The position numbers were made by a program, and so were the translations under genes. A DNA stretch of 50,787 nt from Vezdaea acicularis (Eukaryota). Positions 42,140 to 50,787 of this stretch are shown here, one piece after another. The notes under the pieces were generated by a model. It was given only the letters and a program-made list of their open reading frames with translations. It ran no database searches and was not told where the DNA came from. Position 1 is the stretch's first letter. Every line of letters starts with the position of its first letter. The stretch spans positions 62,001 through 112,787 of the forward strand of contig JAPEUI010000054.1 in assembly GCA_026025075.1 (NCBI GenBank), written 5' to 3'.

Positions 42140-44779
42140 TCAACGCAAAGGCTTGCGGGCGTAGCCATTTAAGCAGCGCCAACCAGCGCCAACACTTTGC
42201 CCTTCCGTAAGTACAGATCGAACACCTTCCAGGAGCATCTCGTCAGGTTTTCCCATTTCCATCTGGAGCTTGAGCATCCACTTTTCCCAAGCCAAGCCCC
42301 CCGCCACACCAGTGATGGTTGCGGCATCCCTTGTCGTTGCCATTGGTTCTTCTTCTCCAGCTCCGCTCTGCTCATACCATTGCTGGCGCACGGCATTGGC
42401 TTTAGCCACTGGAGTCCCTGGGCCAACAGGGAGGAATATCCAGGCCCGCTTGACTGACCTGAAGCCAGCTCCCCTTAGACGACCTAGCCAAGCGCGGGTC
42501 GGGTTCGGGTCGTAGCCTCGAGTCTTAAGGTTGAAGCCGAACTCGACTGACATTGCTAGGCCATGTGGGCCGGCTCTCATGATCTCTGAGTCTAGGACAG
42601 AGTACTCGAGATAGCCACCAGGCTTCAAGCAGCGCATGCACTCCTTGAGACATAGATCGTACTCGTCTTCACCGTTTTCTGATGGTTTATCAGTCTTGAG
42701 AAGAGTGTGAAGTGTCCGTGCTGAGATGACATCAAAGTAGTTGTCGCTAAAAGGTAGACGCCACAGATTAGGCACAGAAACTGATCGGTGGTTTGTAGGT
42801 CCTCTCAGCGCGGCGTGCGACGGCTGCCTGCATGACTTAGTGACCACACTGTAGACTTTTACATTAGGATATTCGCGTGCACATTCCCATGCCCAGTCAC
42901 AGACTGGTTGGCCTCCCAGATCGAGTACTCGAGCGCGCTTGTTCTTGGACGCTGGTCCTGCTCGGGCTAGGCGACTTGCGGCTGGGCGGCTCATAAGTAG
43001 GCCACCATTTAGGGTCTTGTCAGCTGCAAGCTTCCACGTAGCGGCATCGATTTGCTCGAGAGCATCTTGCTCTTTCGCTGCTCTGATCACATGCTTCGCC
43101 TCCTCTGTAGGCGATTCGGCTACACACTTTTTGTCAGATGCTTGATATGCACCCATTAAGCGCAATCTGTGGGCCTCCGGAGCGCAAAGTCTGCGGACTT
43201 GAAGAGCTTCAAAGCGCTGCTCCCGGTGGGTGAATCCGTCCGCTTCGTCAGTGTTGGCCGCTGTGTGCTGGAAGGCTCGAATGAAGACAGATTCTTTCTT
43301 TTCGGGGTCAACATGCTGTTGCTCTGAGAGGGCGGCTGAGAATCTGATCGAGCTTTTCGCAGGAGAGGTATCTTTGGCTCCTGACACCGATTCTTGCTCT
43401 TCTTCTTCGATCGGCGCAACACTTATGTCTACAGCTTCCCGAAGCGTAGTTAATACATCTTCTTGTTGTCGGAGCCACATGCTAGTTCGCTCGAAATTGG
43501 CCGAACCAACTTCTTGAAGGGTGGAGACGTAATTCTCGTCGTAATCTACGGTGATTTCTGTGACTTGGGTAGGTTCCCCTTGAGAGCTGTTGAGTTGGAG
43601 TGAGGATTGTCGCCGTGGGAGTTTTAACGGGATTGCTGTTGGTGGACCATCCATTGCACTCTCTCCAGCATCGATGACTTGCTCTATGGTTTGATTGTCG
43701 GCAGGACTGAAAGGTACCCCATAGAAGTTCGCAGCGAGGGCAGAGGACGGTGTGATGGCAGATGCTGGGCACCATGTGCTCCGAGCACCAGCTGCTAGAG
43801 AAGAGAAGAAACCACCTGGTGAAGGAATACCAAGGTCGGGAAGGGTCATTTGAGTCGCTGGAGTCTGAGCATCAAAACTGTTCCGTCGTCGAGAGGGCTG
43901 TGTAAGCTGCTCCATCTCGGCCGGCGCTTCCAGAGGCGTCTGTATAACAGATTCGCCTGCTGAGAAGAACTGCAATGTGTTCATTGCATCAGGTGGAAGT
44001 TGTATTCCGCCATCCCATTGGGCTTCATCAGCATCGGTGCCCTCGGAAGGTCTTGGTGAAGATCGCACGGTCCACTGTTGTTGATCGTCTGCGCATGCAC
44101 CTGTTGAGGGTGTGGGTGGGGCTTCTGAGCTTGCAAGCTGCTCTGATGTCAAGCTACCATCAAGTGACGGTGGTGCAGTAGATGATGGAGCTTCTTGGTT
44201 AAAAAGGGATAATACCGCAGGTGAGATCGGGATTTTTGGAGGTGGTGTTGGCGGGACTGGAGAGTTCTTCATGGTTGCGGCTATGCCTCCTGTGGGGATC
44301 TGCAACGAGAGCCTGTTCTTAGAAGCCCCAGTATTCCAAGGTAATCTAAATGAATCCCGTCTTGGGGAGTAGAAGCTCGAGTTCGACATGTCCAAACCCA
44401 CTTTTATTTCGGGGACATGATCTCGGCTTTCATCGGCTTCATCCTCGCTGAGATCGTATAAGCTGTCGTAAGACCGCCGACTCGGATCACCCATTGGAGG
44501 ATCGTCAATCGGCGAGGGTGTTGTGGAATCATCGAATGCCATTTGATTTACCAGTGGGGAGACTGGCGATGCTCGGACTGAGAACTGATTGGCACGTGGG
44601 GTCGGGAAGTTGTCACTTTGGGGGGATTTGAAAGCCATTCTTGAGCTCGACATCCGCTTTCTCCTGTTGGGAGACGCTGGCTGATTGTATATTGAAAGTG
44701 CAGGCCTTTGCAGATGCCTCCGAGCCTGCTCAGATGATGAGGGTTTGTACGCAACACTTGGAAGGAGCTCGATCTCCAT
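42140..44779 (-). CDS. Fungal protein with long Pro/Ser-rich N-terminus and C-terminal class I methyltransferase-like domain
   Basis: 879-aa ORF. RVLDLGG, LPFSDNYFDVISAR, ECMRCLKPGGYLE. Confidence 0.85.
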   Translation of the reverse strand: MEIELLPSVAYKPSSSEQARRHLQRPALSIYNQPASPNRRKRMSSSRMAFKSPQSDNFPTPRANQFSVRASPVSPLVNQMAFDDSTTPSPIDDPPMGDPSRRSYDSLYDLSEDEADESRDHVPEIKVGLDMSNSSFYSPRRDSFRLPWNTGASKNRLSLQIPTGGIAATMKNSPVPPTPPPKIPISPAVLSLFNQEAPSSTAPPSLDGSLTSEQLASSEAPPTPSTGACADDQQQWTVRSSPRPSEGTDADEAQWDGGIQLPPDAMNTLQFFSAGESVIQTPLEAPAEMEQLTQPSRRRNSFDAQTPATQMTLPDLGIPSPGGFFSSLAAGARSTWCPASAITPSSALAANFYGVPFSPADNQTIEQVIDAGESAMDGPPTAIPLKLPRRQSSLQLNSSQGEPTQVTEITVDYDENYVSTLQEVGSANFERTSMWLRQQEDVLTTLREAVDISVAPIEEEEQESVSGAKDTSPAKSSIRFSAALSEQQHVDPEKKESVFIRAFQHTAANTDEADGFTHREQRFEALQVRRLCAPEAHRLRLMGAYQASDKKCVAESPTEEAKHVIRAAKEQDALEQIDAATWKLAADKTLNGGLLMSRPAASRLARAGPASKNKRARVLDLGGQPVCDWAWECAREYPNVKVYSVVTKSCRQPSHAALRGPTNHRSVSVPNLWRLPFSDNYFDVISARTLHTLLKTDKPSENGEDEYDLCLKECMRCLKPGGYLEYSVLDSEIMRAGPHGLAMSVEFGFNLKTRGYDPNPTRAWLGRLRGAGFRSVKRAWIFLPVGPGTPVAKANAVRQQWYEQSGAGEEEPMATTRDAATITGVAGGLAWEKWMLKLQMEMGKPDEMLLEGVRSVLTEGQSVGAGWRCLNGYARKPLR

Positions 44780-45912
44780 GATGCAGGTGATTATATGTGG
44801 TGACTGTCACCGTTGCCTGAAGTATATTACGTAGACTGAGTATATACGCTGAGATAAGATGTAGAAATGAGGCGGAAGATGATAAAGCATAAACCTTATG
44901 GACACATGAGAGAGTTAAGAGGAAGATGACGAGCCATCACTACAGGATGTGCCCTACTTTAAAACGAGGTCCGCATTGTCTCGACCTCCTCCGAAACGTC
45001 TCTGCAACACAGAGCAGGTCAATACTCCCAGCGCCAGCGCGGTCGAGACGCCGACATCGTGGGCGCGTATCTCGTGGAGACAGCTTGAAGGCCCATTCGG
45101 CGGCCACAATACCGCCACCCACGATGTGATAGGTGTGCTGATACCGTTGCATAGCATCAGAGCGTGACTGCATAATGAGCATAAGGGGGTGGCCTGTAAA
45201 GGTCTCCGAGTGATTGGTGCTAGAACCAGTCAATTATGAAGGGCTGCAGATGGCCATCAGGGACAAAGCAGGATGCGCGCGGTGACGGTTGTGGTTGGTC
45301 GAGGCGAGAAATTGGTTGGCGAATCACAGAGCACAGCGCTGGCCAACCGCTCAGCTTTGGAAATGTCTCGAGTAGCTGGGCGCGTATTTCCCTCCGTACC
45401 ACATTGTACCTGACCGCCATGATCGACAGGCCCCATTTCTCGAAGGAGCAGACCACTGCTTGAAAGGCCGGAGTGACCTTTGCGCACTATCGATTCCTAT
45501 ACCGATTTTCTGAAAATCACTATCACGCCGCGCCAAATCGTCAAGTCTTCCGACCTTTTCCGTACTTCCGTACACTGTTAATCGTGGTTCAATACTTTGG
45601 TAACTCGCAAAGCCCTGGATGCATTTGCATCATGAGCAAGAGGAGTATTTGTTGTTATTATGTAGGAAGTGGTGCTGCTGCTCGACCATGCTGGTCTCCA
45701 ACTCATCTACCGTACGCGCTAACAACTGACGTAGCCTGCCCCGCTATGTTCGCCAAATCTTCTCGATCCAGTTGCCCCGCGGTGGGACCACATCCTGAGT
45801 ACCTGCGGCACGCGTTCACCTAGCGTTACGCTGACTGGAGAGTTCCCAAAAGCCATACCTGCCTCAAGACCGCTGTCGATTGTTTGAACCGCCCCTTATA
45901 GAATCTTCCATC

Positions 45913-46806
45913 ATGGCGCCAAAAGCAATCATAGCGCCCTCGATTCTATCCGCCGACTTCAGTTGTCTTGGCGCCCAATGCTCCCAAACGATGACGGATG
46001 GCGCGGACTGGCTCCACATCGACATTATGGACGGACACTTCGTGCCGAACATGACATTCGGCGCTCCAGTTGTAACAAAGATACGGCCTCACGTGGGGCG
46101 GCCGACAACAGCGCATGGCAAGGGAACCTTCGACTGCCATATGATGGTCAAGGAGGTGAGACATCACACCATGAGTATGGAGCAAGAATGTATAGTAGGC
46201 TGGGCTGACAGAGTAAATAGCCAAAGAGATGGGTTCGAGATTTCAAGGACGCGGGATGTGACCTGTATTGTTTTCATTATGAAGCGGCTGTCGACTCAAC
46301 AGCAGCAGATAGTCCGGCGGGAAAGTCGGACAAGCTGACTAACCCTAAGGAGCTCATCAAATTTATCCACGATAACCACATGAGAGCAGGCATAGCAATC
46401 AAACCAGAAACACGTGTGGATGTATTGTGGGATATCTTAGAGAATCCAGAAAGACTGGAGGTACCCGATGTAAGTAGCTCCGGCTGCTCTGGCGACCGTT
46501 TATATCAGGACAAAGATTATTGATGCGTCGTAGATGGTCCTGGTTATGACCGTTCATCCAGGCTTTGGTGGTCAGAAATTTATGGCGTCTGAATTACCTA
46601 AAGTAAGAGCGCTACGTGACCGGTACCCCGACCTCAATATTGAAGTCGACGGAGGTCTTGGTATAGGCACAATTGACGAAGCCGCTGATGCTGGCGCGAA
46701 TGTGATTGTAGCAGGGTCGGCGGTTTTCGGCGCTAAAGATCCTGCTGATGTGATCACAAAATTGCGAGAGGCGGTTGATAAACGAAGAGAGGCTGGTAAG
46801 ATATGA
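45913..46806 (+). CDS. RPE1: Ribulose-phosphate 3-epimerase, spliced
   Basis: [55 protein letters not shown]. Confidence 0.97.
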
Positions 46807-47111
46807 TAGATGCCACCATCAGAATTCTATAGTTCCTAGAATGCTAGCGTTTGAATGATGCCTTGTAAGCTCAGTTGTGCGTTGACTGGATCGTGGTCTA
46901 GATCACCAATACCACCGATGGCATAAGTATCAAAATCGTAGAAGCGAGCCAGAAGAAGATAGGCTAGAAGAGTAAATAACTGCGAGCCGAGGAAGCGACG
47001 AAGCTAGTAGAGAGAGGCATGTATCTCAACTAGGGGCTTAAATGACGCGCAATGGTAGGAGGGCAGTAAACATCCCAGGTCACGGAAACGAAAGTCCGTT
47101 ATGGGCATTCT

Positions 47112-48314
47112 TCAATCAGCCACTGTGGTCCCAGCCTCTTTGGGATCAGCCGCTGCTTGAGTTTGTGTGTTGCCTGGTTCAGAATGGCTAGTTGCAGTAC
47201 TTGCAGTAGGCTCCACAGGTTCCGCAGTATGTGCAGCTTTTGTGTTCTGTCCGGGGATCTCCTTCGCAACGTCCTCTTCATCTTGTTCTTCATCCTCTTC
47301 GGGTATAGCTTGGTCATCCTCGATCTGCTTGATCTCTTCAACAGAGGCTGTGGACACGTTCGAACCTCTGTGTTGCAGCGTGCCGATTGGCAGATTTGAG
47401 GCTGGATCTGGCTTCGTCGCAGATATAGAATCCGAACTCAGGACGGCCTCTGCGTGTGGTTCCACTGCTCTTTTAGATTGCTCCAACTCAGCTTCCTCTG
47501 CCTCATGAATAGAGATTCTCTTCGCGTTAGGGCTTGCAGACATTGTCTCCGGTGCAGCAGCTTCAGAGGCGGTATAACTTCCAGTCGGTGGGGGAGCTAC
47601 CGCAGAATGGACTAGAACTTTGTCTACTTCTTTCGTGGAAGAGTTCGGTTCGGAAATCTCACCGGCAGCAACCTTGCTGTCTCCTAAGCCCTTTGCTTTT
47701 CCCTCGCTAGCTTTCTTAGCAGCTTCTTCTCCTGCCTGTTTCATTGCCACAGTAAAGGCAGTAGGTGTAGCACCAGCGGGTACCTTAGGTTTTTCCCCCA
47801 CTGTCTGAGGCACATTTGATAGCGTGCCCAAAGACGTAGGCCCTGTTGAAGTACCAGAAATCCCTCCAATTGCAGGGACAGGGCCAATCTTCTCCTTCAG
47901 CTCGCCGTATTCATTCCAGTCTTCAATCTCGGTCAGATCCTATTGGTAGTCGCTGATTAGCCCGCTATTTTGTATGGAGCGTATTAATGGACTCTATCAT
48001 ACTCCAACCGGATAGCCCAATCTCATAAGCCCAGGAAGCTTACGGCCTCCAGCTCTTCTTCCCCACAACTTGCGTGCATTCTCATCTGTTGCCAAATCAA
48101 TTGCTCGAAAAGGTATCTTATTGGCTTTGAGAATGGTTTCGAGCCTAGACGTAGCAGTAATGATATGTGAGGACCCCGCTGTTAAGGAAGTACATAGGTA
48201 TAGTGTCTCGTCCGTCTGTGAATACCTGAATCAGTGCCCCACATTTTAGATCGGAGGAAAAGATGCCATCCTGCGTCGACGTACATAGTAGGAAGTTGAC
48301 GCTGACTCGGCCAT
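47112..48314 (-). CDS. SH3BGR-like thioredoxin-fold protein with long acidic low-complexity tail, 3 exons
   Basis: An exon missing from the ORF track encodes LYLCTSLTAGSSHIITATSRLETILKANKIPFRAIDLATDENARKLWGRRAGGRKLPGL, spliced to DLTEIEDWNEYGELKE. Confidence 0.8.
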
Positions 48315-48673
48315 GGTGTTTCTTGAGTCTAGAACTCAGACGCGAAGGATTCTTTGGAAGGTGCGTTATTGAACCTTTCTATCCGATTGACTACTAGAGG
48401 ACGAGATACTCCTTCCTCCGGTTGACGTAGTTGTCGGGTCGGCTAAACTCTGCTCGTAGAACTTGCCAAGGTTTCGTTTTCTGCCAGAATGACACGCGAT
48501 CGGCAAAGTTCTTCTCGAACGATGTATTGGTTATCCGTAGGCCTAAGAATTTCTCTAGAATTCCGATACAGTTATTGGGCTTGGTGCAACTAAGTTACAA
48601 AGACTGCTGACCAGCGGGTTTCTTAAGTGGGGGACGACTCAAGCGAAGCGGAACATTCTGATCATCCACCACA

Positions 48674-48935
48674 TGTGAGGCGTAGGCGTACGAGTAGGGA
48701 GCAGACTAAACCGTATCCGGCGTAGAGCAAGCGTCACTCAGGGGGGTCACTATAGGTATCGAGAAGTATAGCATATAGTAGCAGTCAATGAATACGTCTA
48801 TGTGGATTGTGTATTGAATGCTGGGGAGCCATGCCTCAGGGCTTCCCCGCATTCCTATCTACGGTGCGTCACGTGACTCAAGCCTAGTGCAGGCATAGCG
48901 CAGGCTGCGATCACGGGATGGGTACGTTCGTGACA
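48674..48935 (-). repeat. Putative 3' LTR, ~262 bp
   Basis: TGT...ACA termini, internal GTCACGTGAC palindrome (48868-48877) and TCAATACA motif (48817-48810). The 48935 end is anchored by the PPT. The 48674 end is the best TGT candidate and is less certain. Confidence 0.62.
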
Positions 48936-48950
48936 ACTACCCCCTCTCCT
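48936..48950 (-). other. Polypurine tract (plus-strand primer site)
   Basis: AGGAGAGGGGGTAGT abuts the TG start of the LTR. Confidence 0.68.
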
Positions 48951-49332
48951 ATGGCTGCGGTCCCCGCAGACTTATGCTAGGGTTCTTTTCTACTATATCC
49001 GCTGCTAGCATCTTATGCTAGCTTCAGCGTATGCTAGCTGTTGCAGCTAGATTCATCTCAATAAGTACCGTAGGCTGCCGTCTCAAGAGGCGCTCAGGAG
49101 AAGAGCAGGCCCTATTGTCGATTGCTGCGGCTCTATTGTTCTTTGTATTGAGATGCATCCCCTTTGTTTCAGGTTGGACAGGGATCTTTTTGGCGTTTCC
49201 TGAGTCTCTCAAGACTAGCTCAAGCTTCACTTGAGCGATAGTCTTGCGAGATCGTATGCTTCATGACGGAGAGTTATGAACTTTCACTTCGACGTCATGT
49301 CATCGCCTTGTGGGGCTTTCTGCCGTCCCGCC

Positions 49333-49339
49333 TATATAA
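49333..49339 (+). promoter_or_regulatory. TATA box of the 49455 gene
   Basis: CC-TATATAA-GG ~120 bp upstream of the ATG, followed by a pyrimidine-rich tract. Confidence 0.6.
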
Positions 49340-49454
49340 GGCAGCGGATCCCCCACTTTTTTTCGTCCAACCTTCTTCCTCTTTACACCTTGCTGGTGTC
49401 CTTTCTTTTGCTCTCTGCTCATAGCTTAATCAAGCTATAATCAAGCTCTTTACT

Positions 49455-50472
49455 ATGTCTCGCATTCGTCCTCCCGAGGATGCACAAGTGCCCTTCGAGG
49501 AAGGAGTCGTGCCTGGCCGGCTTGCCAATCCACCTGAGATGACTCGTCGGGTCTGTCTCAGATGCATGAAGAGAGTTGATCAAGATCCTGGGGCCGAATG
49601 TGCTCGTCTCACTCCATTGACAAAGTGTACCTACTGTCAGGAGTTCAACCATCTTTGTCATGACGTGAGTATCCCTTGATTCTCTCACGAGCTCAGCTAA
49701 TCGCTCATAGGTTCCGGTCCCTTATGTCGCTATTGCCAATAAACTCCTCGAGCATGCTGACGTCTTGTGGGGTATGGGTGAGTAGCTCTAGGATACCTCA
49801 TGAGTATAGCTTGCTAACGCTCTGAGTTCTAGGTCCCGATCACCCGCGATACAAGGACGGTCAGGCTCTTTTGGCTCGCAAGACGGCTATCTTCGCCAAG
49901 GACGTTGAGGCATGGCGCAAGGCCAACGATCCGACTCGCAATACCCAGGACGAGGCTCAACGTTCACGAGATGCCACTCAAAAGGGTATTCGTCTGGCTC
50001 TCGAGGCTCTTGTTGACGTTACTCGGTATATTGTAAGTGCTCCTTCTCAAGCCCAGCTCTAAGGCTACTCTTGAGTTAAGCCTGCTAACTCTTCTTCCAG
50101 GCCCGCCTTCCGTCTCTTCCTCTTGGCCGCTGGTTCGAAGACGACGAGTACGGTCTGAACTGGAACTACTTCTTCGAGGGTCGCGATCAGGACGGCACTC
50201 CTATTCCCGGAGTTGAGCCCATGGACCCGCCTCTCCCTACAACCTTGGTGGTGAGAACTCCAAGACGCAGTACCTTCTTCCTTTCTGGCCCTGATCCCCC
50301 CGCGCTTGCTCCCAGCTCCGATCCTGCTTCCGGTTCTGACCCTCCTGGCCTGCCCAACGTGACGAACTACGACACTGAGGACCCGGACGACAATGACGGA
50401 GAGGACGAGAACGCCGAACTGGACTCCGCTGGGGCAGCACGTCGTGGCTTCTCTTCCGTCAATAATCAGTAG
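49455..50472 (+). CDS. 4-exon gene, 282 aa, atypical Zn2Cys6-like cluster with Pro-rich/acidic tail, antisense within the putative retroelement
   Basis: Exons 49455-49664, 49711-49777, 49833-50032 and 50101-50472. Introns GTGAGT/GCTAAT/TAG, GTGAGT/GCTAAC/TAG and GTAAGT/GCTAAC/CAG. The spliced frame is open for 849 nt. Confidence 0.85.
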
Positions 50473-50787
50473 GCACTCAAGGGGCAATCAAGCTCTTGCC
50501 GGCGTTAGGGACACAGCGTTGGGTAGCTGAAGGGCTTGCCTTGGGCGTAGGATGGCTGAGATTGGACGGATTGAGCAATAGGCTCTAGACTTGCGTTGCT
50601 TCTCTTAGATAGACTCAATACAATGATCTATTCTATGACTTGACCCCGCGTGAGACCCTCTCTGTTGTGGGACAGCAGGATAGGGGCAGGGAGTAGCGAC
50701 GATATATACTAACAGACGCAGCTTCCTTATAGCGCCTGCCCATAGGGGCAGCGCTATGAGGCATGCGACTGCCCTGCAACGGACAGC

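Follow-up and report, generated by a model that had tools for sequence, protein, structure and literature searches.

Long terminal repeat (LTR) elements can capture cellular genes, and in non-autonomous elements of the type of large retrotransposon derivatives (LARDs) a cellular gene sits between the LTRs and is copied along; as a rule, captured genes are fragments that lack introns and are oriented in sense. Introns that lie antisense to the RNA of an element are not spliced from that RNA and survive reverse transcription. Extra open reading frames (ORFs) that point antisense to the element and lie between pol and the 3′ LTR are described for the plant families Grande (gene23), RIRE2, Retand and PvRetro13 (PMC7264820). 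The fungal case is brtn, the antisense gene of Boty in Botrytis and Sclerotinia, as it is mentioned in three papers (PMC7264820, PMC8365987, PMC4227169). None of the antisense extra genes known from these few plant families and from Boty has a known function. brtn is reportedly treated by Zhao et al. in 2011 (Virology 417:248). Here, we investigated a 282-aa gene at the right-hand end of a 50,787-nt stretch of the Vezdaea acicularis assembly GCA_026025075.1 (contig JAPEUI010000054.1, positions 62,001 to 112,787 of the forward strand; this whole stretch is called the window), where it lies beside an LTR-like repeat. An earlier note on this DNA had proposed that the gene is encoded by an LTR retrotransposon and had named Grande and RIRE2 as precedents. 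Both precedents stand, but the plant-only picture is incomplete, since the fungal brtn exists (PMC7264820, PMC8365987).

The reading that we prefer, which we hold with roughly even confidence, is that the gene is carried inside an LTR-bounded mobile insertion and is antisense to the element. The likeness to brtn, as described in the cited passages, lies in an extra gene of a fungal LTR element that is encoded opposite to the gag-pol strand, beside the 3′ LTR; for Boty gag-pol and both LTRs are known, whereas here one LTR and a polypurine tract (PPT) are seen. Three introns and a predicted Zn2Cys6-like domain set our gene apart from brtn by description only, and there were no Botrytis proteins among the results of the family searches (phmmer with exon 1, and profile). 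The plant antisense ORFs (aORFs) of Grande gene23, RIRE2, Retand and PvRetro13 share its position and orientation relative to the PPT and the 3′ LTR, and a nuclear or regulatory role has been proposed for them (PMC7264820). According to the same passages they occur in most copies of their families, whereas the gene studied here is much rarer than its LTR, and the kingdom differs. Occurrence in most element copies, a criterion for aORFs of this class (aORF-3R: brtn, gene23), is not what we found (gene depth about 1.6-1.9 times and LTR depth 5-11 times that of the flank). Like the known cases of gene capture, the locus would hold a cellular gene between LTRs, but this one is complete, intron-bearing and antisense. 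We found no publication on this gene or on a Zn2Cys6-like gene in an LTR element, in searches that were not designed to exclude one; the species name led to a single floristic paper. If the preferred reading holds, the locus provides another antisense extra gene of an LTR element, with an unusually informative protein: a recognizable domain of DNA-binding type would make the function of such a gene directly testable, and the gene would be a clean natural case of antisense introns surviving retrotransposition.

The gene model with its three introns is, judging from the sequence, intact and beyond a chance frame. There are four exons on the plus strand: exon 1 (49455-49664, 70 codons) for a disordered N-terminus and a six-Cys knot, exon 2 (49711-49777, 67 nt), exon 3 (49833-50032, 200 nt) for the helical region and exon 4 with the stop codon (50101-50472) for a Pro-rich, acidic tail that is probably disordered. 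They are separated by intron 1 (49665-49710, 46 nt, GTGAGT..CTAAT..TAG), intron 2 (49778-49832, 55 nt, GTGAGT..CTAAC..TAG) and intron 3 (50033-50100, 68 nt, GTAAGT..CTAAC..CAG), also on the plus strand. A script located the donors (GTGAGT at 49665, GTGAGT at 49778 and GTAAGT at 50033), the acceptors (TAG, TAG and CAG) and the CTAAT/CTAAC branch-like motifs 14-20 nt ahead of the acceptors. Splicing by script gave a coding sequence of 849 nt that starts with the ATG at 49455, ends with a single terminal stop codon at 50470-50472 and is translated into 282 aa; the coding sequence and intron lengths given in the earlier note were thereby reproduced. The spliced product is identical, letter for letter, to KAI9857351.1 (P0010), a 282-aa entry annotated as 'MAG: hypothetical protein M1824_004901 [Vezdaea acicularis]', where MAG stands for metagenome-assembled genome, which means that the gene finder of another group arrived at the same four exons. 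P0010 was found within the 90% cluster of P0009, which the search with exon 4 had returned. In addition, a local blastp alignment with P0001, a relative from the same MAG, is colinear with residues 1-155 of the product and spans all three exon joints. The TATA box that had been claimed for the gene at 49333 is present as a TATA-like TATATAA at 49334-49340 (plus strand), 115 nt upstream of the ATG and followed by a CT-rich leader.

Seven public runs, none of them recorded as RNA, cover parts of 48300-50787, and X1, X2, X4 and X6 were compared with the window over 44000-50787, the results applying to the matches listed. The left end of the proposed insertion is formed by LTR-A (48674-48935, minus strand), a 262-bp multi-copy repeat with TG..CA termini, which we take to be the 3′ LTR of an element on the minus strand. 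Its bounds were given by loose ends in X4: those of six contigs whose upstream sequences differ mark 48673/48674, and the other bound is at 48935. A PPT-like run on the minus strand (48938-48950) directly adjoins LTR-A on the inner side; its 11 purines (48940-48950) begin 4 nt inside the LTR end. Because purine runs of at least 11 nt number 34 on the plus strand and 39 on the minus strand of the 50.8-kb window, such a run within 5 nt of an independently set LTR end is unlikely to have arisen by chance. Depth over the LTR-A region (48540-48993) is 22-31 in X1, 49-83 in X2 and 85-122 in X4, which is 5-11 times the depth of the host flank (about 4.4, 7.6 and 11, respectively). The LTR-like repeat with its adjacent polypurine tract is genuine. 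The TG..CA ends, the 11-purine run and the elevated read-derived depth in three runs bear out the PPT and LTR junction reported earlier, and the gene lies inside this junction and points opposite to the element, as had been claimed. Further copies of LTR-A, or of a second repeat at the right-hand end, were not found in the rest of the window, and a 22-nt pattern of the LTR end and PPT had 0 matches in metagenome contigs. Some LTR variants in X4 carry internal deletions of 104 nt and 84 nt (48721-48826), which indicates that the repeat family is heterogeneous. Other element types were considered and rejected: LTR-A is not a solo LTR, as its flanking 5 nt differ (CCACA versus ACTAC), and it is not a terminal inverted repeat element, as its ends are not inverted repeats beyond TGT/ACA.

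Contigs of the host flank indicate an insertion boundary at LTR-A. Contig 18 of X4 (6835 nt, depth 11.8, flank 93.0% identical) matches the window from 46606 to 48671 and then runs on for 4768 nt. The X4 depth over 48994-50582 is only 0.4-7.4, which shows that contig 18 does not extend over the gene. Record 6 of X1 matches 48269-48674 and is then followed by 89 nt unlike the window. The flank contigs of both X1, a 99.6%-identical strain, and X4, a 93% relative, therefore leave the window no more than 3 nt from the LTR terminus, and at the level of contigs this is a polymorphic insertion whose empty site coincides with the LTR terminus. On the other side of LTR-A, single contigs hold the LTR end, the PPT and gene-side sequence together in X1 (record 7, 48906-50025) and X2 (record 14, 48918-50025), and an X6 contig (record 27, 48907-49196) likewise bridges the LTR end and PPT into the gene side. 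Gaps in contig cover, such as the X6 host flank and positions 48994-49373 and 50356-50582 in X4, prove nothing and were not counted as evidence.

Copy number and divergence point in the same direction. The depth of the gene region is 6.9-8.3 in X1 and 12-14 in X2, about 1.6-1.9 times that of the host flank, so it is no simple host gene that is syntenic and present in a single copy. Compared with the window, the flank differs at 17 of 4365 nt in X1 (0.39%) and 11 of 4612 nt in X2 (0.24%), and the LTR end with the gene region at 16 of 1706 nt (0.94%) and 14 of 1693 nt (0.83%), respectively. This excess (Fisher p = 0.018 for X1 and 0.0023 for X2) fits paralogous copies better than allelic ones. 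Gene pieces in X4 fall into two series, 97-98.6% and 86-91% identical to the window, around a flank identity of 93%, and those of X6 are 92-98% identical. The near-identity of the first X4 series could be explained by a recent transfer of the element between species or by a polymorphic insertion. In the X4 pieces of this 97-98.6% series (49374-50298) the identity includes the introns; their depth is 3.6-6.6, below the 11 of the flank.

We propose the following course of events. An LTR element would have integrated at 48674 in minus orientation, into a site that is unoccupied both in a nearly identical strain and in a related species. LTR-A would be the left end of the insertion, with the gene in its 3′-proximal internal region and transcribed antisense to the element. 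The gene would thus be part of the inserted DNA and present in more than one copy or variant. Most likely it belongs to an old, sparse ascomycete family and has been taken up by, or is resident in, a low-copy sub-family of the element, together with which it would now move. Being antisense to the element RNA, its introns would be inherited through reverse transcription and the gene copied whole. We infer that the element is a retrotransposon with gag-pol.

Several observations weigh against this reading. A search for reverse transcriptase (RT), integrase, gag and chromodomain found none in 10 ORFs (34-140 aa, both strands, 48706-50787, Pfam at E ≤ 1), and minus-strand gag-pol, which the earlier note had advised looking for, is not seen in the 1.85 kb visible inside the LTR. 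Likewise, up to the end of the sequence at 50787 no second LTR, primer-binding site or target-site duplication is visible. The repeat beginning at 50663 was tried as the element's second LTR and rejected, having no similarity to LTR-A. A 49-nt block with the LTR end and PPT (48921-48969) recurs in another LTR-like copy, which shares the PPT and about 20 nt further and then diverges at 48969, 34 nt inside the element. The gene is found at about twice and the LTR at 5-11 times the flank depth, so it is far rarer than the LTR and limited at most to a sub-family; taken with the divergence at 48969, this implies that most copies of the LTR family are without this gene and have different interiors. 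The distant relatives of the protein (30-41% identity), each on a single contig, show the pattern of a host gene family, and the remaining 48 kb of the window hold only ordinary housekeeping genes. The run data are contigs, and three of the four runs are metagenomes, in which depth sums organisms; a further 208 pieces and 101 loose ends lie beyond the matches listed. Because the window comes from a MAG, the join from host to LTR could also be an assembly path through a repeat. The earlier claim of an element gene rather than a host gene accordingly holds in part: non-single-copy depth, the linkage from LTR to gene and the exit of the flank at the LTR speak for it, and pol and a second LTR are unseen and the gene is rarer than the LTR.

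A possible alternative, to which we give less credence, is that the gene is an ordinary lineage-restricted host gene at a repeat-rich contig end, caught between a stump of LTR-A and the unrelated repeat at 50663. LTR-A, the PPT and about 20 nt would then be the truncated remains of an old insertion, and the LTR-like copy that diverges at 48969 would fit a break point there. The missing pol and gag remnants within the 1.85 kb inside the LTR agree with such a stump, but the same LTR-end-to-gene junction recurs in X1, X2 and X6, and in X1 the host flank parts from the window where the LTR starts. A TATA box and a leader of its own precede the gene, its GC content at third codon positions (GC3, 0.555) lies inside the range of seven sampled host ORFs (0.42-0.63), and GenBank lists it as a normal hypothetical protein, all as expected of a host gene. 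Relatives in other lichen fungi and a 33% identical paralogue in the same MAG, each on one contig, also suit this explanation. However, the orthologous X4 flank continues for 4768 nt without the gene, yet X4 carries gene copies elsewhere. The host flank is also unseen in X6, where the gap in contig cover is weak evidence. The roughly twofold depth could in principle come from duplication of the segment or from another, related fungus present in the metagenomes, but divergence from the window is 2.4-3.5 times higher in the gene region than in the flank. Should the host-gene explanation hold, the locus would be ordinary, an already annotated hypothetical gene beside transposon debris.

To assess what the protein might do, we turned to its relatives and predicted fold, the earlier note not having recognized its family. 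When 1.84 billion representatives were searched exhaustively with exon 1 by phmmer, there were two matches at E ≤ 0.001: P0001 (155 aa), a paralogue from the same Vezdaea MAG with 33% identity (local blastp E = 2e-26), and P0002 (172 aa), from a Pleopsidium flavum MAG, which aligns over 11-166 with E = 1.5e-13. A profile search added P0003, a cluster of six sequences from Logan, ENA and JGI samples. These relatives share 30-41% identity with the gene, each sequence occurs on one contig in the collection, and they are distant and apparently single-copy. P0003 and P0008 have an in-frame insert of 15 residues exactly at the position of intron 1, which is probably a 45-nt intron that a gene caller of the prokaryotic kind translated as coding sequence; if so, the intron position would be old and conserved at about 30% protein identity. 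The nearest clusters in the ESM Atlas are unnamed Ascomycota hypothetical proteins (scores 0.92 and 0.87). By sequence, the PDB contained only two de novo designed proteins (profile) and nothing for the Cys part. The exon-4 tail is rich in Pro, Asp and Glu and its relatives are limited to near-identical copies. None of 1103 candidates was significant when exon 4 was searched against longer proteins, a result bounded by the word search, given that the full protein is present in the collection. Exon 4 as protein had 600 pattern matches in metagenome contigs, with 0 confirmed, and P0010 had 7 in viral and 109 in prokaryote genome contigs, again with 0 confirmed.

All four family members share the spacing C-x2-C-x11-C-x8-C-x2-C-x6-C of the six cysteines, which lie in exon 1 of the gene. 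Against the consensus for Zn2Cys6, CX2CX6CX5-12CX2CX6-8C, the pattern fails at the first loop, which has 11 residues instead of 6, and the remaining spacings conform. A model of exon 1 alone has a predicted local distance difference test (pLDDT) score of about 74 across the Cys part, and all ten Foldseek rows that it gave at E ≤ 10 are Zn2Cys6 domains (E 5-9.7), from Lac9, Ppr1 (twice), Put3, Gal4, Leu3 (four chains) and Pho7, with a root-mean-square deviation of 1.4-2.9 Å over 34-40 columns. In VIA-align, the sole row at Z ≥ 2 out of 48161 chains was another Zn2Cys6 protein, AlcR (Z 2.0 over 44 residues). On the strength of this unanimity, with each score insignificant alone, the modelled domain of exon 1 appears Zn2Cys6-like, and we do not place it in the Zn2Cys6 family. 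That the fold matches are insignificant one by one (E 5-9.7, Z 2.0), and that no exon, no relative and not the whole of P0010 matches Zn_clus (PF00172) in Pfam at E ≤ 10, also counts against the reading that we prefer. Nothing else relevant was found in Pfam at that threshold for exon 1, P0001, P0002 or whole P0010, and P0003 gave four weak unrelated rows, none of them Zn_clus. In the AlphaFold model of P0001 (pLDDT 73), the N-terminus is disordered, residues from about 30 to 70 form a Cys knot, and residues 73-154 fold into a three-helix bundle. This 155-aa model had no Foldseek match at E ≤ 0.001, and in VIA-align it matched generic three-helix bundles only (best Z 10.5, a designed coiled coil), a score that is not meaningful for helical bundles.

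Taken as modelled, the exon-1 domain resembles the Zn2Cys6 domains of Gal4, Ppr1, Put3, Leu3, Pho7 and AlcR in its six cysteines, arranged in two CxxC-bearing halves, and in the typical spacing of the second half (x8, x2, x6), followed in the protein by a helical region and an acidic tail. Unlike in Zn2Cys6 factors, the first loop has 11 residues rather than the 6 of the general consensus and Zn_clus is unmatched at E ≤ 10, and the protein is far smaller and without the fungal-specific middle homology region. The predicted protein looks like a divergent DNA binder of the Zn2Cys6 type, and we read it as a small Gal4-type regulator, for which we infer DNA binding.

A stronger form of the preferred reading is that the gene encodes an accessory factor that serves the retrotransposon and is kept by selection on the element, either as a transcription factor, with its own LTR or an array of ATGCTAG sites as target, or as a counter-silencing factor. 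We consider this unlikely. Its position and orientation are those of the antisense extra ORFs of Boty brtn, Grande and RIRE2, as far as the source describes them (PMC7264820), and the modelled N-terminal domain is DNA-binder-like, but the gene is present at about twice and the LTR at 5-11 times flank depth, and a link to pol is not seen in the visible 1.85 kb. The rarity of the gene relative to the LTR, together with its single-copy-like relatives, favours a resident or captured gene of a sub-family, possibly non-autonomous, over a core accessory gene. Seven coding differences between the window and X1/X2 are listed; three fall in the N-terminal half, all of them synonymous, whereas the replacements, also three and identical to those in P0009, are confined to the tail. 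Four synonymous changes out of seven, a small sample, are not significant (binomial p = 0.06). The identity of X4 copies, 97-98.6% against 93% for the flank, could mean a recent spread between species. A single CCG-N4-CGG site lies in the LTR, which is no enrichment, as the window has 5 where 8.2 are expected. The anti-silencing role suggested in the earlier note found no support.

The ATGCTAG sites lie between the LTR and the gene. Four of the nine matches in the window fall within 64 nt (48974-49037), about 420-480 nt upstream of the ATG, and this cluster may be a candidate cis-regulatory array. It begins 5 nt beyond the point, 48969, at which the other LTR-like copy diverges. The fullest version of the strong form, an active LTR-element sub-family in a lichen-forming fungus with its own three-intron antisense miniature Gal4-like regulator, acting on the LTR or the ATGCTAG array and recently mobile within and perhaps between species, is more doubtful still.

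An assembly artefact through LTR-A, or a larger non-retroviral mobile or duplicated block, is very improbable, for although the window appears to be the end piece of a 112,787-nt MAG contig, none of the listed contigs bridges 48614-48674 as the window does and the right-hand repeat has multiple boundaries (50663, 50699-50706 and 50725), even a chimera would require that the host locus contain a copy of LTR-A, and the gene would in that case still lie beside LTR-A and the PPT elsewhere, and TG..CA ends with a PPT are hallmarks of LTR elements and not of other classes.

Around the gene, a few minor features can be noted. The downstream motif named in the earlier note is present at 50615-50623 (plus strand) as TCAATACAA, with weak statistical weight: the TCAATACA motif has four matches in the window against 1.24 expected, a number reached in 1 of 100 shuffles, and is poor evidence. 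The 12-mer AATCAAGCTCTT occurs just ahead of the ATG (49439-49450) and again just past the stop codon (50486-50497), a pair that chance could explain (blast E about 1). Within the leader, an 11-nt unit is repeated in tandem 2.4 times at 49423-49447.

The right-hand end of the window is occupied by a second high-copy repeat (50663-50787), which is far more abundant than the LTR, begins with TGTTGTGG and contains the end of the sequence. Depth over 50583-50787 is 78 in X1, 162 in X2 and 22.5 in X4, and for the repeat itself it ranges over 78-200 in X1 and 162-385 in X2. The gene-bearing contigs of X1, X2 and X6 match the window until 50662 and then continue for 269, 155 and 497 nt, respectively, that are unlike it, so that the window copy has either a further insertion there or is joined to another repeat. 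Several alternative boundaries are seen for the repeat, at 50663, 50699-50706 and 50725, and its core at about 50725-50783 contains a short hairpin-like palindrome. In one contig of X4, the LTR end (48937) is linked to 50706, with 1768 nt skipped; in the X4 organism, the LTR and the right-hand repeat may adjoin without the gene segment.

The window itself appears to be the last 50,787 nt of a 112,787-nt MAG contig, with the assembly stopping at 50787. Its other genes encode, among others, a prolyl oligopeptidase, an ATP synthase subunit, a mitochondrial carrier, Tim17, Brix, MMS19 and RRM proteins, as well as TPR, P450, a thiamine pyrophosphate (TPP) enzyme, a phosphodiesterase and DRMBL, and none of the 39 ORFs scanned across the rest of the window contains RT, integrase or gag. 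The gene nearest to LTR-A is a divergent neighbour on the minus strand (47112-48316), with two ORF pieces (47112-47939 and 47997-48230), for which Pfam gave no match at E ≤ 1e-4. As it starts about 360 nt to the left of the LTR, the insertion would lie within the upstream region of this neighbour.

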